A DNA stretch of 64,000 nucleotides from Eledone cirrhosa (GCA_964016885.1 OZ024742.1:24614001-24678000), one strand, 5' to 3'. Counted from the stretch's first letter, positions 16,808 through 63,210 are shown. Notes: generated by a model not told the origin, from the sequence alone. Program-made: numbers and translations.

Positions 16808-16935
16808 AATGAAGTAGAAGTCAGTAGGTTAGAATATATCTCATTCATTTGTAACACAATCGCTGTTATATGTATTTCGATGGTAACTGTTATGTAAAAA
16901 TTACAACCTCATCAGCTACTGACTTCTACTTCATT
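16808..16935 (-). ncRNA. Candidate type I hammerhead ribozyme with a long stem I
   Basis: Minus strand: CUGAUGA (16915-16909), stem II GGUUGUAAUU/AGUUACCAUC, GAAA (16878-16875). Enclosed by a perfect 20-bp inverted repeat (16808-16827 / 16916-16935). Confidence 0.55.
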
Positions 16936-17069
16936 GTTATAGCAATGCTCCAAATACCATAAACCTACATGATTACATTAGAGACTACTTTATCTTGGAT
17001 ACACTTATATTGGTTGATTAACTTACATAATAATAATAATAATAACAATAATATATGTATATATATATA

Positions 17070-17411
17070 TCATCATCATCATCATCATTTTACGTCCGCT
17101 TTTCCTTGCTTGCAAGGGTGGGACGGGAACTGTTTCCGGCTTGATTTCTACAGCTGGATGCCCTTCCTAACACCAACCTCATTTACAGTGAGTGCTGGGT
17201 GCTTTTTTGCCGTGGCATCTCCACGACCACTTTGCAGTGGAATGATAGGGACCTCAGTCCCTATCATCTCATTTCTACAGCTGAGTAAACTGGAGCAATG
17301 TGAAATAAAGTATCTTGCTCAAGGAAACAACACATCACCCGGTCTGAGAATTGAACTCACAACCTTTCGATTGCAAGGCCAATGCTCTAACCACTAAGCC
17401 ATGTGCCTCCA
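17070..17411 (-). mobile_element. tRNA-derived CORE-type SINE (family 1), full length
   Basis: A box TGGCTTAGTGG, B box GAGTTCAATTC, CORE-like CCTTGAGCAAGA.ACTT, RTE-derived 3' part and (TGA)n tail. Confidence 0.9.
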
Positions 17412-17452
17412 TATATATATATACATATATTATTATTATTATTATTAAGACT

Positions 17453-17625
17453 AGGGCAGTTGTTTGGTAGTATTGGTAGAGCGTCGGACACCATGCTTTG
17501 CAGCATAGAGTTGCGGCCCTTTACGGTCTGAGTTCAAATCACGCCAAGTTTAACTTTGCCTTTCATCCTCTCGGGGTCGATAAAATAAAGTACCAGTCAC
17601 ACACTGGATTCGATTTAATTGACTC
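17453..17625 (+). mobile_element. tRNA-derived SINE family 2 (Meta-domain-like centre)
   Basis: A box, B box GAGTTCAAATC, then AACTTTGCCTTTCATCCT..CGGGGTCGATAAAATAAAGTACCAG. Confidence 0.85.
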
Positions 17626-18799
17626 TATCTTCTCTGGAGTTTCACCTCTTTATCACATATGTGTGAGTGTGTGCTCTCTCTCTCTCTATATATATGTCTG
17701 TGTGTGTGTGTGTGTGTGTTCTCCCTCCCCCTCTCTCTGTCTATATATGTGAAGGGATGTATAACCTCAATTTGAAATTGAGCTGATCTGACATTATTAT
17801 ATTCACCTGACAGACAATCAGAATAATTAATAAAGCAGCAAGTCTTCTCTATCGGAATTCTGACATAACATTCTATTTCCTTATCACTACTAATATATTT
17901 ATATTACACCTCTTTCTCTGCATAGGCATACATACATACGCACACACATATGTATGCTCACACACATACATACGCACATACTTACATGCATATACACACA
18001 TATATACACACTTATACATCCATACACACATAAATACACTTACACATACATACATACAGACAGACACACACATACATATACACACACTCACACACACACA
18101 CATTCAGTCACACATACATACACACATACATAGATACATACATACATACATGCATACATATATATATGCATACATGCATATAGATTCTTTTTATTATGTT
18201 CTTTTATTATTTTGCTTCTTTCAGTCAGTTGACAATGGTCAAGCTGTAGCACTTCCTTTATTTAATTGATTATATTGACCCCAGTACTAATTTTTAAAAA
18301 CCTGGTACTGATTTTATCGATCTTGTTTTGTTGGACCACTAGGTTACAGGACATAAATAAAAACAGATATTAATGTAAACATAGACACACACACACACAA
18401 ACATATATATTCATATACATGCTTATATATTATATACATATATATATCTATACATATATATATATATATCTATACATATACATATATATATATATATATA
18501 TATACACACACATATATATACATATATAACAGGCTTCTCCAGGTTCCATCTACCAAATTCAACTCACAGCATGTTAGTCCACCCAAGTCTGTACTGGAGG
18601 ACACTTATCCAAGGTGCTGTGTAATAGGTCTGACCCCAGAACTTCTAAGCTACTTAGCCATGCCTGCATTAAACTAATACATTTCTTCCGTGTACTGTGC
18701 TGTTTGTTTTGTTGTTTTTGTTATTTCTGTTTACCTTTTACATACGTACATACATATATATATATATATACACACATAGGTGATAACATTTTACCTTGC

Positions 18800-19196
18800 C
18801 CATTTGCACCTCTCAAGGGCAATGACACAGGACTGAGACCTCTGGCGTTGCACAGTAGTACAGAAGACCCAGCTTCCCACGGGTACAGGCCGAAGCTGAA
18901 GCATATAGACTGTATGCCTCCACCACCTCCCACTGAGGAGTGGTCGTTTCGGTGTCACAACAGAAATCACCCAGTCCACACTGTAAAGTGACCGGATAGA
19001 CGCCACGGTAAAAAAGCACCCAGTCCTCACTGTGAATGAGGTTGGTGTTAGGAAGATGATCCAGCTGTAGAAATCAAGCCAAACTCAGTTCCCGAATGAG
19101 CAAGACATGATCACCTGACCTGGCATTGCCCACAATAGGACAACCCGTCTAACCCATGCTAGCGTGGAAGAATGTATGTAAAACGGTGATGATGAT
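18800..19196 (+). mobile_element. RTE family B 3' fragment
   Basis: Homologous to 35940-36340 (ORF end, 3' UTR, TGA tail). Confidence 0.85.
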
Positions 19197-19385
19197 ACAT
19201 ACACTCTGACACATGTTCTGCGAAATGTGCGTAACAGGTCGATACACAATAAAAAAACTGACTGTTATCAAAACTTTGTTTTTCTTTTCATATATATATA
19301 TAATGTAGGAGGTGAGTTTTATTGTAGCACAACAAAGCAATGCAAAAATCGGATAAGTAGCACTCAACAGTATATAGGCCTGGAG

Positions 19386-60189: not shown

Positions 60190-61195
60190 ATAACACACCA
60201 CATTATTTCATACTAAACACCACATTATATAATACTACACACCACATTATATAATTGTTTCTACTTTTGGCACAAGGCCAGCAATTACCCAGTACATTAC
60301 TGGTATTTTATTTTATCGACCCCGTAAGGATGAAAGGCAAAGTTAACCTCGGCGGGATTTGAACTCAGACCGTAAAGGGACGTAACTATACTGGAAAGCA
60401 TGGCGTCCGACTCTCTACCAATACCTGCCAATCCACACCACATTATATAATATTACACACCACATTATATTATATAACACACCACATTATTTAATACTAC
60501 ACAGCATATCATATAATACCACACACCACATTATATAATACTACACACCACATTATTTAATACTACACACCACATTATATAATATAACACACCACATTAT
60601 TTAATACTACACACCATATCATATAATATAACAAACTACATTATAAAATACTACACACCACGTTATATAATGCTACACACCACATTATATAATACTAGAC
60701 ACCACATTATATAATACTACACACTACATTATATAATACTACACACCATGTTATATAATACTACACACCACGCTATATAATACTCCACACCACATTATAT
60801 AATACTACATGCCACATTATATAATACTACATACCACATTATATAATACTACACACCACAATATAACAATATATAATACTACACACCCCATTATATAATA
60901 CTACACACCGCATTATATAATACTACACATCACATTATATAATACTACACACCACATTATATAATACTACACACCACATTATATAATACTACGCACCATG
61001 TTATATAATACTACACACCACATTATATAATACTACACATCTGACAAGATAACACGCCACATTATATAATACTGCCCACCACATTATATAATACACCACA
61101 TTATATAATACTTCACACCACATTATATAATACTAGACACCACATTATATGATAACTACACATCTTACAAGATATTACACACTACATTACACCAT
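60190..61195. repeat. 22-bp minisatellite interrupted by a SINE
   Basis: Unit CACACCACATTATATAATACTA. Confidence 0.92.
60255..60433 (-). mobile_element. SINE family 2, near full length
   Basis: Colinear with 63214-63400. Confidence 0.9.
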
Positions 61196-61394
61196 ACAAA
61201 AAAAAAACTGTTATTAAAAGTAAACTTAGCAAGAGAGTAGATGTTACAGTGTTTGCAATTGGACAGAGATAATTTAGTGTTTGAGAGGGCACTTCAGTCT
61301 GACCCAGCATGTGACAACTTCCCTAAGTCTACTTTTCTTCTTTGCCCACATTTTTGTGTGTGTGTGTGGGGGGGGGGGGGACAGAGTGCTCAAA

Positions 61395-61600
61395 TAGACA
61401 TTCCATGGGGTCTTGTTAAAAGCAACCATCTTGAATTGATCTGGCTGGATCCCCAAGCAAGACCAGCCAAGCTCATGGATGTTATCCAACCATCTTACTC
61501 AGGGTCTACCCTGAGGTCTCCTGCTGGTTGGTTTTACCTGTAAAATCCATAATATCGGAGCTGTGATCTCTCAATTCAGAGAAGCTGCATCTCTACCTGG
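61395..61600 (-). mobile_element. Old RTE (Expander/Rex3-like) C-terminal remnant
   Basis: ORF track gives DNIHELGWSCLGI; homologous to 11900-12110. Confidence 0.6.
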
Positions 61601-62626
61601 AGCAACTCTCATATATTTGAGCTACACCTCATTTCTTTTCATCTACCCTAAATCACACCATGTTATATTTTACTACAGCATACTACAGTGTACCACACCA
61701 TGCTACACTACATTCTACTACACCACCCTATATTACATAGTACTACACTAAAACCACAAGACTGTCACAACTTTAATACTTCATGTGACTATTTAATGAA
61801 ACTGTTTACACCAATAACAGTCCAAGTAGTAACAACTACAATAACATCTGCAACCATAGTCACAAGCTGTACCAAATACAAGAATAACAAGTCTTTACAT
61901 TACCAACGATAGTTACAAACAGGTGAAAGTAATGTTATTGTACATTGAAAGATTTTATCAAAATCCTCTTTGTTTTGTCAAAACACACAGCTTAGATAGT
62001 TGTGTCATGTATATATATATATATATATATATGTGTGTGTGTGTGTGTGTGTATGTGTACGTGTATATATATATATATATATATATATATATGTGTGTGT
62101 GTGTATATATGTATATATATATCTGTGTGCGTGTATATGTGTATATAAATATATATATGTGTGTATATGTGTATTTATATATATATATGTGTGTATATAT
62201 ATATATATGTGTGTGTGTGTGTATATATATATATGTGTGTGTGTGTGTGCATATGTATATATATATATATATATATATATATATAAATGCACACATATAC
62301 ATACATATAGCTTAGTCGTTATACATACATACATTATTATATATACACATCCAAACACAAACTTATAGCTTACATAGTTTGCCAAACATATATGTATACA
62401 CATTCATACTACTTTTCTGTTTATATATAATCACAGACACCTTAGATAGTTATGTGTTACTTATATACACACACATATGTACACACAAATATATATATAT
62501 ACACAGAACAGTTAAGTAGCTGTTTGTTATTCAAACATGCATTCAACTTTGGTAGTTTTATGTATACACAGAATTTAACAAGATTGTTACATATATACGC
62601 ATATGTATGAATATACACATACAGAT

Positions 62627-62957
62627 GGAGGCACATGGCTTACAATCGAAAGGTTGTGAGTTCAATTCTCAGACCGGGTGATGTGTTGTTTCCTTGAGCA
62701 AGACACTTTATTTCACATTGCTCCAGTTTACTCAGCTGTAGAAATGAGATGATAGGGCCTAGGGTCCCTATCATTCCACTGCAAAGTGGTCGTGGAGGTG
62801 CCACGGCAGAAAAGCACCCAGCAGTCACTGTAAATGAGGTTGGTGTTAGGAAGGGCATCCAGCTGTAGAAATCAAGCCAGAATCAGTTCCCGTACCACCC
62901 TTGCAAGCAGGGAAAAGTGGACATAAAATGAAATGATGATGATGATGAAATGATGAT
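62627..62957 (+). mobile_element. CORE-type SINE family 1 (small deletion in head)
   Basis: Colinear with 36389-36731. Confidence 0.9.
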
Positions 62958-63089
62958 TTGTATATTTAAGATAGTAGTTGGTTATATATACACACATCAG
63001 TGCATGGGGGAGTGTAGAACTTTAGATAAATTGGGGTAACCACAGATTATAAGGTACTCAATACATTAGTAGAGTGTAAACAGCATTAT

Positions 63090-63210
63090 TTGATACAGAA
63101 ATGGCTTCTACAGGACTAAAACTGTTTCATTTGTATGAAATTATCAGGAATGCCTGGGGATTTCATATGAATGAAACTGTTCTAATTTTGTAGAAGCAAT
63201 TTCTATATGA
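63090..63210. repeat. Decayed fold-back inverted repeat with degenerate HHR cores
   Basis: GCTTCTACAGGACTAAAACTGTTTCATT...ATCAGG / CCTGGGGATTTCA...AATGAAACTGTTCTA...GTAGAAGC. Relatives at 48015-48110 and 33030-33070. Confidence 0.6.

Follow-up and report, generated by a model that had tools for sequence, protein, structure and literature searches.

Hammerhead ribozyme islands of probable Penelope-like origin in an Eledone cirrhosa genomic window, including a candidate S-G-C hammerhead family

Short non-coding islands bearing hammerhead ribozyme (HHR) motifs recur between positions 16,808 and 63,210 of a 64,000-nucleotide stretch of the Eledone cirrhosa genome (GCA_964016885.1 OZ024742.1:24614001-24678000; hereafter the window). 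This raises the question of whether the motifs are real, which kind of element carries them, and whether any of them departs from known hammerhead designs.

Hammerhead motifs in the window

The HHR motifs of the window are real. A sequence-only reading had listed HHR folds or remnants at 13 sites, and a core or recognisable remnant was present at each of them (13/13). It had also proposed comparison with a dinucleotide-shuffled control, which we ran on the window (region 5800-64000) with a descriptor covering six block orders, its scoring set up after the candidates were already known. Nine cores scored at least 10, against a mean of 0.25 and a maximum of 3 in 40 block-wise dinucleotide shuffles, and five scored at least 13, against none in the shuffles. 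The nine cores were 19491-, 19578+, 29995+, 30618+, 33602+, 37659-, 37714+, 38219+ and 58447+ (sign gives the strand). The four remaining listed sites (16915-, 36936+, 46990- and 63147-) were decayed remnants with core mismatches or missing stems. The first scored 9 with the six-order descriptor and 14 in a looser scan; 36936, with two core mismatches, was matched only by a relaxed scan (shuffle mean 0.4, maximum 3); and the last two were matched by no descriptor and were identified by eye. Further CUGANGA words (33480-, 37424-, 43299+, 47895+, 54498+ and 56058+, among others) all scored below 8 and were rejected. The Rfam hammerhead model gave no match at the gathering score in the whole window, where the sole gathering-level match was a tRNA. 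No hammerhead stood among the best 150 of 243 matches in the E-value list, which consisted mostly of TA-repeat miRNA matches.

The islands formed sequence-unrelated groups, as had been proposed, but we counted nine rather than about eight. Those outside the S-G-C family, which is described below, were:

16802..16941, minus strand: HHR remnant (core 16915) with poor stems II and III, enclosed by a 26-bp inverted repeat
19389..19680, both strands: inverted pair (94.5%), head to head, whose two full type I HHRs face outward
33545..33650, plus strand: type III HHR variant within the TA-flanked island 33176-33920
36772..37215, plus strand: 405-nt unit with a 39-bp terminal direct repeat and a dead minimal type I HHR
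37471..37955, both strands: two minimal type I HHRs in an inverted pair (87%), head to head
46930..46995, minus strand: HHR remnant, core 46990 and GAAA, without a valid UH or stem I
58231..58786, plus strand: 519-nt unit with a 37-bp terminal direct repeat and a full type I HHR
63070..63229, both strands: decayed inverted pair (77%), its minus-strand core at 63147 having one mismatch

CUGANGA, GAAA and UH around stems I-III were all present in the islands at 19.5, 37.7 and 58.5 kb. In the 19.5 pair (cores 19578+ and 19491-), stem I had 8 bp and stem III was an 8-nt palindrome; one arm extended about 87 bp further, reaching TA. The HHRs at 37.7 (37714+ and 37659-) had an extra G after A9, a 6-bp stem II and a 1-bp stem III, and the one-sided extension of this pair was about 57 bp. 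The HHR at 58.5 (core 58447, GAAA 58489, UC 58509) had a 7-bp stem I and one mismatch in stem III (z -2.9). The variant at 33.6 had an extra A after A9, an 11-bp stem III and a 4-bp stem I (z -3.6); G15.1-C16.1 replaced A15.1-U16.1, and the remaining core positions and stems were present. In the dead HHR of 36772..37215 (core 36936), G5 and G8 were both mutated to A, and stem III was a 6-nt palindrome. A copy related to the 63070..63229 island was seen at 48051-48108.

Origin and mobilisation of the islands

The islands mostly look like ordinary leftover ends of Penelope-like elements (PLEs). Their PLE hallmarks were head-to-head inverted pairs, terminal direct repeats of 37-67 bp, a palindromic stem III and an extra base after A9. 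Direct repeats occurred in three islands, inverted pairs in three and a short inverted repeat in one. The HHR lay within the terminal repeat at 19.5, 37.7, 63.1 and 30.0/30.6, and mid-unit, outside the direct repeat, at 36.9 and 58.5. Cervera and De la Pena (2014, PMC4209133) describe many variable HHR families per genome in metazoan PLE pseudo-LTRs, pairs on opposite strands separated by 100-700 bp, a base inserted between positions 9 and 10.1, and a palindromic stem III. Since such families and pairs have already been described, the window-wide pattern is not new, and it adds little to the numerous, diverse PLE-derived hammerheads already known in animal genomes.

The islands, those of the S-G-C family included, are probably short pseudo-LTR fragments without coding sequence, or non-autonomous derivatives, from about nine PLE families, with HHRs that would trim precursor RNA. 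We infer PLE mobilisation, transcription and cleavage as follows. A PLE protein (RT and GIY-YIG endonuclease) encoded elsewhere would have cut AT-rich DNA and reverse-transcribed the islands. At 19.5, 37.7, 63.1 and perhaps 16.9 this would have left a 5'-truncated copy next to an inverted partner, and at 30.0-30.6, 36.8-37.2 and 58.2-58.8 a unit whose ends carry a short direct repeat. The HHRs would do their trimming mostly as dimers. A PLE enzyme studied in PMC11167929 favours AT-rich DNA and starts internally; HHR cleavage was dispensable there for insertion in vitro, and no reads started at the cut site. A Penelope-type RT or GIY-YIG ORF had been reported as absent from the window, and ORF, Pfam and motif scans upheld this. 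The 61 ORFs of at least 120 aa in the window were LINE pieces or repeats, Pfam found only AP-endonuclease, RT and PHD in four of them, and the GIY-YIG/PLE-RT motif scan gave eight matches, which all came from a single short pattern and lay outside the HHR islands.

The LINEs of the window, which we take to be RTE-type, were the other candidate source of a mobilising RT. A TA-microsatellite niche common to ribozyme-bearing retroelement pieces and LINEs, as had been suggested, is supported: eight of 14 LINE/SINE-type 3' ends were directly followed by TA. The related statement that nearly all islands lie next to (TA)n held in part. All 11 loci lay within 221 nt of a (TA)n run with n of at least 4, but this closeness was weakly supported and not clearly beyond the TA-rich background (median distance 141-213 nt; P 0.09-0.24 with LINE ORFs and satellites excluded, 0.04-0.10 otherwise), and the 63.1 island was not TA-flanked. 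The positions of the island ends were better evidence for the link than the median distance. An AT-dinucleotide run, short or impure in two cases, lay no more than about 10 nt from each of the six inspected ends that a repeat arm fixes independently.

The common location in TA tracts would also suit islands that travel as SINE-like passengers with the window's dominant RTE-type LINEs, one of which has an ORF open over 1030 aa. However, blastn of 11 island stretches against three LINE copies and one SINE gave no match at E 0.01, no island carried the (GAT)n tail (14 of 24 (GAT)n runs came after a LINE-type end motif), and inverted 5' partners and terminal direct repeats fit PLEs. Because there is no shared sequence or (GAT)n tail, mobilisation by RTE-type LINEs is unsupported, and the passenger explanation, already disfavoured, is very improbable. 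A homologue search with the LINE gave 1637 matches, with no taxon or clade named among the 120 listed. The sequence-only reading had left the mobilising RT undecided between Penelope-like and RTE. We depart from it here, given the absence of any sequence or (GAT)n tail common to the islands and the LINEs or SINE, and an anatomy that matches published PLE pseudo-LTR fragments (PMC4209133, PMC8557442).

That reading had also offered retroelements or circular RNAs; ribozyme-bearing retroelement pieces were supported, and circular RNA stays a candidate form. A search of sequencing runs with the stretch 33200-33900 gave no RNA run, and runs with shares under 0.2 for this stretch were left out of the analysis. 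If the islands were non-LTR retrozymes, they would form a separate class spreading via circular RNA with whichever RT is available. Three islands slightly exceeded one unit (405, 519 and 623 nt), and the 623-nt unit folded better than 20 of 20 shuffles (z -3.7), which we counted for this view; in coral, mussel and axolotl, circRNA arises from tandem repeats with type I HHRs (PMC7229834). Yet none of the islands was a genuine dimer or multimer containing two whole HHRs, the window had no tandem in which two or more successive units each carry a complete type I HHR, the inverted pairs are PLE-type, and go-back joints in the contig data are explained by the S-G-C terminal repeat. We regard a separate retrozyme class as unlikely. 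Moreover, animal retrozymes are traced back to PLE pseudo-LTRs in a 2026 preprint (10.64898/2026.07.22.740005), so this rival largely merges with the PLE explanation.

A candidate S-G-C hammerhead family

The sole novel item was contained in an earlier remark on permuted topologies. The family at 30.0, 30.6 and 38.2 kb is, judged from its sequence, one candidate new HHR architecture, with its blocks in the order cleavage site, GAAA, CUGAUGA (S-G-C), a non-circular permutation. Its members were:

29952..30640, plus strand: S-G-C element flanked by TA, with a 623-nt unit and a terminal direct repeat of 67 bp (97% identical)
29952..30006, plus strand: first HHR copy, 5'-cut, with stem I 5' strand, GAAA and stem I 3' strand
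30528..30628, plus strand: complete S-G-C copy with helices a, b and c, hairpin h, and stems I and III
37971..38288, plus strand: diverged member (about 76%) between two TA tracts

In the complete copy at 30.6, the helices were a (30528/30625), hairpin h (30532-30553), c (30555/30585) and b (30560/30605), and the core consisted of stem III (30569/30594), U16.1-A17 (30573-30574), stem I (30575/30611), GAAA (30591) and CUGAUGA (30618). The 38.2 copy had U16.1-A17 at 38173-38174, GAAA at 38191 and CUGAUGA at 38219. In the 3' part of the first copy, CUGAUGA at 29995 was followed by an extra A and then GGAC. CUGAUGA and GAAA were found in all three window copies, and the full S block in both complete ones. 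The element starts at 29952, the base directly after the predicted H17 and thus at the predicted cleavage site, a coincidence seen in one copy and blurred by up to 4 nt of shared TA.

The family is a high-copy repeat found in three or more organisms, one of which has thousands of matching contigs, and this abundance makes covariation analysis and bench tests easy. The strict family pattern gave no metagenome loci. A looser pattern gave at least 120 metagenome and eight viral loci, none similar in sequence to the family, so these loci added no alignable copies. Common changes appeared in the read data at 29992 and 30585; the partner positions were not among the 40 rows listed of 191. Depth differences along the element were set aside as a measure of conservation, since they also track the divergence of the window copy from the family.

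In the predicted fold, the three helices a, h and c take the place of stem II and close the core once the following tandem copy supplies GAAA. When a two-copy fold was constrained to stems I and III alone, these three helices arose unaided in both copies, at 3.3-4.3 kcal/mol above the free minimum, and the computed fold was compatible with a two-copy arrangement. Between A9 and G12, 0 and 2 bases were unpaired, which 2 and 12 of 300 flank shuffles equalled; the constrained energy by itself was unremarkable (47 and 39 of 300 shuffles). The predicted active fold was the minimum-energy fold in neither copy. In the natural stretch 29940-30645, a model without pseudoknots gave a probability of at most 0.10 for stem I and at most 0.01 for helices a and c. 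The usual G10.1-C11.1 pair was not conserved. Helix b was broken in a contig of sequencing run X1, and at 38.2 two of its six pairs were broken without a bulge.

Double-sided changes between the 30.6 and 38.2 copies affected six of 34 pairs, three in stem I and three in hairpin h, in a sample of two complete copies that are 76% alike and from which the structure itself was derived; a slid-register control gave at most two. Stem I (6-7 bp) carried three compensatory changes, and stem III (5 bp) one one-sided change. The chance of three changes per strand hitting partner positions was about 1 in 35. However, all six double changes were G-C/A-U transitions, which compositional drift could partly mimic. 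Another fully paired 7-bp stem I was found in the X1 contig.

The working form may be an interleaved dimer, in which the cleavage-site strand and CUGAUGA of one copy join GAAA of the next, with helices a, h and c standing in place of stem II. Such a dimer could be cut only in a transcript longer than one unit; the cut would fix the 5' end of the element, and the last copy would remain uncut. The dimer is the most likely form, somewhat ahead of the monomer. We see an even chance that this high-copy animal retroelement carries an S-G-C hammerhead with a three-helix branch for stem II, needing the GAAA of a second repeat (or a pseudoknotted monomer) to cleave, sensing transcription beyond unit length and setting the 5' end.

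Eckert et al. (2023, PMC10085705) described type-SGC non-circularly permuted hammerheads, HRIMA-1 and variants. A monomeric, pseudoknotted ribozyme of this type, with c replacing stem II, a as a tether for the upstream strand and b as an off-switch, would agree with the spacing in the window family, where 3-nt linkers join stem I to the pre-GAAA strand and 12-13-nt linkers lead to stem I 3', as in published examples. Local stem III probability was about 0.9, and stem I could then close as a pseudoknot, which ViennaRNA cannot score. Against this, none of the three copies matched the published type-SGC descriptors, and a relaxed one matched only 30618, with stem II pairing limited to 10.1-11.1. 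Helix b abuts stem I without a linker, so on geometric grounds both would hardly form together in one copy, and a monomer leaves the retained uncut second copy unexplained. The monomer reading is doubtful to us. No more probable is the view that the arrangement is a cis-element without catalytic function, or that HHR-like words came together by chance within a structured repeat. This non-catalytic reading would account for the missing conventional stem II and for an active fold that is not the predicted minimum. It also draws on 128 listed unrelated loci with the same GAAA-to-CUGAUGA spacing, two of which score 10.5 (stems I and III), near the 11 of the 38.2 copy. However, these loci have no family similarity and none equals the 13 of the 30.6 copy, stem I covaries, junction closure is far better than in shuffles, and the motif sits in the terminal repeat, the same location as PLE hammerheads. 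We also rejected a twister reading, prompted by bases after stem I that resemble twister starts (by eye, the P4 loop and P1 do not form), and a type II reading via the upstream GTCC segment (no GAAA lies downstream of it).

If the family cleaves, its ribozyme design would be new to an animal genome, and standard descriptors and Rfam would be missing abundant genomic ribozymes. A ribozyme cutting only multimeric precursor RNA would bear on the open role of PLE hammerheads.

Comparison with known systems

The minimal type I PLE HHRs of PMC4209133 resemble those of the window in their many variable families per genome, in copies that are mostly solitary and truncated, in pairs on opposite strands, in the base added after A9, in a palindromic or 1-bp stem III, and in dimer-dependent cleavage, which is predicted for the window. 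Unlike the elements described there, the window islands show no flanking PLE ORF, 33.6 is a type III HHR with G15.1-C16.1, and the S-G-C family swaps the GAAA block instead of the cleavage strand. Microsatellite insertion bias is described for PLEs of the Neptune, Naiad and Hydra clades, and Naiads are given as lacking canonical HHRs, by Craig et al. (2021, PMC8557442). Those PLEs share 5' truncation, partial tandems, inverted 5' copies, one-sided extension and (TA)n bias with the window islands, whose extensions (about 57 and 87 bp) exceed the 30-40 bp given there. Animal non-LTR retrozymes, as described in PMC7229834 and 10.64898/2026.07.22.740005, likewise have non-coding units of a few hundred nucleotides, low GC, type I HHRs and PLE derivation. 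They are defined by tandem repeats with an HHR per unit and by circRNA, whereas the window units are about 1.1-mers or inverted pairs, known from DNA alone.

The S-G-C order has so far been described almost only from environmental RNA (PMC10085705). The window family, if confirmed as such, would be a chromosomal, eukaryotic example of this class, with an architecture invisible to published descriptors. It shares with type-SGC the block order, the complete core, a 3-nt linker after stem I, a linker below 15 nt before stem I 3', and often one extra base after CUGAUGA. Order and complete core were found in both complete copies, and the third copy starts at the cut site. Stems I and III of 4-7 bp, linkers of at most 8 and at most 15 nt, and covariation were found on few sequences. 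By the published descriptor, a direct stem II (G10.1-C11.1 and at least 2 bp between the post-CUGAUGA and pre-GAAA strands) was absent from all three copies. No helix linking the free sides of stems I and II was seen in that position; a, b and c pair with upstream sequence. Published type-SGC hammerheads have a direct stem II, whereas in the window family both stem II strands pair with separate upstream segments.

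Repeats and hammerhead motifs in the window

The DNA of the window is AT-rich, repeat-rich and eukaryotic; it carries numerous (TA)n tracts as well as satellites. Its long open reading frames are pieces of LINEs, which we take to be of the RTE type, and the host to be cephalopod-like.

Repeats of the window
39403-42893, +: LINE copy; frame 39403-42495 open for 1030 aa (AP-endonuclease, RT, PHD finger); (GAT)n tail
43820-44479, +: C-terminal part of another LINE-like ORF, divergent from the first, running directly into (TA)n
22100-22163, 17344-17401, 28044-28101, 36398-36455: tRNA-like SINE heads
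7-5706: 48-bp satellite repeated ~119 times with 90% matches; GC skew strong; long minus-strand open frames
48672-50172: minisatellite, period 43 bp
59327-59835: minisatellite, period 87 bp
60434-61162: minisatellite, period 22 bp
52473-52712: minisatellite, period 44 bp

Among the matches listed, the nearest database proteins of the LINE at 39403-42893 were 48-57% identical across the RT half. Related copies lay at ~6.7-9.6 kb and 34.0-36.3 kb. The fragment at 43820-44479 had no GAT tail and no match in a Pfam search. The SINEs at 17.1-17.4 kb and 36.4-36.7 kb pass into 3' ends of LINE-like type, which contain GAT repeats.

For the hammerhead ribozyme (HHR) search, every CUGANGA word was listed, and descriptors were applied for the three classical orders, then for all six block orders. 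The control was 40 shuffles with dinucleotides kept within 500-nt blocks. With the six-order descriptor, nine cores in 5800-64000 scored at least 10 against a shuffle mean of 0.25 (maximum 3), and five scored at least 13 against none in the shuffles, a margin somewhat flattered by scoring fixed after the candidates had been seen. The motif density exceeded that of shuffled DNA. Four of the sites listed in the sequence-only reading are remnants. At gathering score, Rfam called no hammerhead among the HHR sites of the window.

Hammerhead motifs
19491 (-), 19578 (+), 37659 (-), 37714 (+), 58447 (+): full or minimal type I, by descriptor
33602 (+): type III variant, by descriptor
29995, 30618, 38219 (+): cores in S-G-C order, by descriptor
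16.9, 36.9, 47.0, 63.1 kb: remnants, those at 47.0 and 63.1 kb judged by eye

Type III hammerheads are described as uncommon in animals. The one here (33545-33650, +) has G15.1-C16.1 in place of A-U, an extra A after A9 and an 11-bp stem III, and folded better than 200 of 200 shuffles. An opposite-strand CUGAUGA at 33480 (-), 122 nt from this core, is accompanied by a palindromic hexamer and, at some distance, by GAAA; it did not pass the descriptor.

Anatomy, neighborhood and origin of the islands

Sequence comparison placed the HHR-bearing non-coding islands in nine groups rather than the eight or so unrelated families first proposed. The only related pairs were 30 with 38.2 kb and 48.06 with 63.1 kb, and further likeness was confined to two 20-26-nt matches (E 0.002-0.009).

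Island structures
19389-19680: head-to-head inverted pair, 94.5%, one-sided extension
37471-37898: head-to-head inverted pair, 87%, one-sided extension
63070-63229: head-to-head inverted pair, 77%
29952-30640: unit with 67-bp terminal direct repeat
36772-37215: unit with 39-bp terminal direct repeat
58231-58786: unit with 37-bp terminal direct repeat

The right arm of the 63.1-kb pair overlaps a 101-bp repeat (63204-63304) that recurs at 23348-23448 with 95% identity, which suggests a later insertion.

Nearly all of the islands had been described as lying next to (TA)n. All 11 HHR loci had (TA)>=4 within 221 nt, and ends fixed by a repeat arm abutted AT runs in all six inspected, two of the runs being short or impure. 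However, the 63.1-kb island had no flanking TA, and the median HHR-(TA)n distance was not clearly below background (P 0.09-0.24 with LINE ORFs and satellites removed, 0.04-0.10 before removal), because TA tracts are so dense in the window. TA directly followed 8 of 14 LINE/SINE-type 3' ends, so the niche is common to these elements and the islands.

The islands showed neither resemblance to the LINEs and SINE of the window nor a (GAT)n tail in sequence comparison, and none was tied to a Penelope-like element (PLE) ORF within the window. Published PLE features include incomplete tandem copies, inverted copies truncated at the 5' end, a tail of 30-40 bp on one side and a bias towards microsatellites (Craig et al., PMC8557442). 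Minimal HHRs, variable and numbering thousands per genome, have been ascribed to truncated PLEs; they include pairs on opposite strands at distances of 100-700 bp, and they show an added base separating positions 9 and 10.1 as well as a palindromic stem III (Cervera and De la Pena, PMC4209133). Other sources report >6000 HHRs in 16 families in coral (PMC7229834), animal retrozymes derived from PLE pseudo-LTRs (2026 preprint, 10.64898/2026.07.22.740005) and 31 recently active Penelope-like families in O. vulgaris (PMC13282606), relevant if the host is an octopus. Since the anatomy of the islands matches these features, the window-wide pattern is ordinary, PLE-linked and already in the literature. 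Mobilization by a PLE route is likely. Overall, the initial observation was largely right.

Sequence and proposed fold of the S-G-C family

The copies at 30.0/30.6 kb (one element) and 38.2 kb probably represent a hammerhead with its blocks in the order cleavage site (S), GAAA (G), CUGAUGA (C). At 30.6 and 38.2 kb, a stem III strand, UA, a stem I strand and a 3-nt linker are followed by six bases, GAAA, the stem III partner, 12-13 nt, the stem I partner and CUGAUGA, with no GAAA downstream of the core. Two upstream segments act as pairing partners: one forms helix a with the bases that follow CUGAUGA, the other forms helix c with the bases that precede GAAA, and hairpin h lies between these segments. 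Double-sided changes occurred at three of seven stem I pairs and at three more in hairpin h (slid controls, at most two), a count resting on two complete copies and one partial, from which the structure was also derived. The 623-nt unit folded with a z of -3.7. Within the body of the element, at 30199-30437, lies an inverted repeat with 69% identity across 114 nt.

Comparison of four public runs with 29953-30642 indicated a large family: organism A contributed 2906 contigs together with 5878 reads, organism B 61 contigs and organism D 12. One contig string had a further fully paired stem I, and in 303 reads the core was followed by an additional A and GGAC. Helix b was intact in some strings; one string had it broken.

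In a single copy, helix c, helices b/III and helix I cross one another, and b abuts stem I without a linker; a monomeric pseudoknot is a possible fold. All helices become nested when copy n supplies the S and C blocks and copy n+1 the G block, and an interleaved two-copy HHR of this kind is the most likely model. With stems I and III as the sole helices enforced across two copies and the core held unpaired, helices a, h and c arose spontaneously in both copies, at energies 4.3 and 3.3 kcal/mol higher than the free minimum, a gap reached by 10 and 4 of 300 flank shuffles. Two and zero bases were unpaired across A9-G12 (equalled by 12 and 2 of 300); the absolute energy was unremarkable (47 and 39 of 300). 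Against this working fold, the active form was not the predicted minimum and G10.1-C11.1 was not kept. Shifted by one base, the junction would become a stem II of a single base pair topped by three helices.

In the two-copy model, the cut would set the 5' end of the element and leave the second copy uncut. Consistent with this, the element starts at 29952, immediately downstream of the predicted cut, and its second copy is uncut, although this is one insertion whose edge is blurred by shared TA. Counting against a cleavage-based model, a study of a Poseidon PLE reports cleavage as dispensable for insertion in vitro (PMC11167929). The chances that cleavage could be demonstrated with the branched design appear evenly balanced.

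Comparison with known S-G-C hammerheads

No animal or chromosomal S-G-C hammerhead was found in the literature covered, mostly papers open without subscription and, apart from Eckert et al. 2023 (PMC10085705), mostly at title level. The published SGC descriptor matched none of the three family copies, because a direct stem II is absent. The family shares its block order with the hammerheads of Eckert et al., and as a candidate new hammerhead architecture it merits a cleavage assay.
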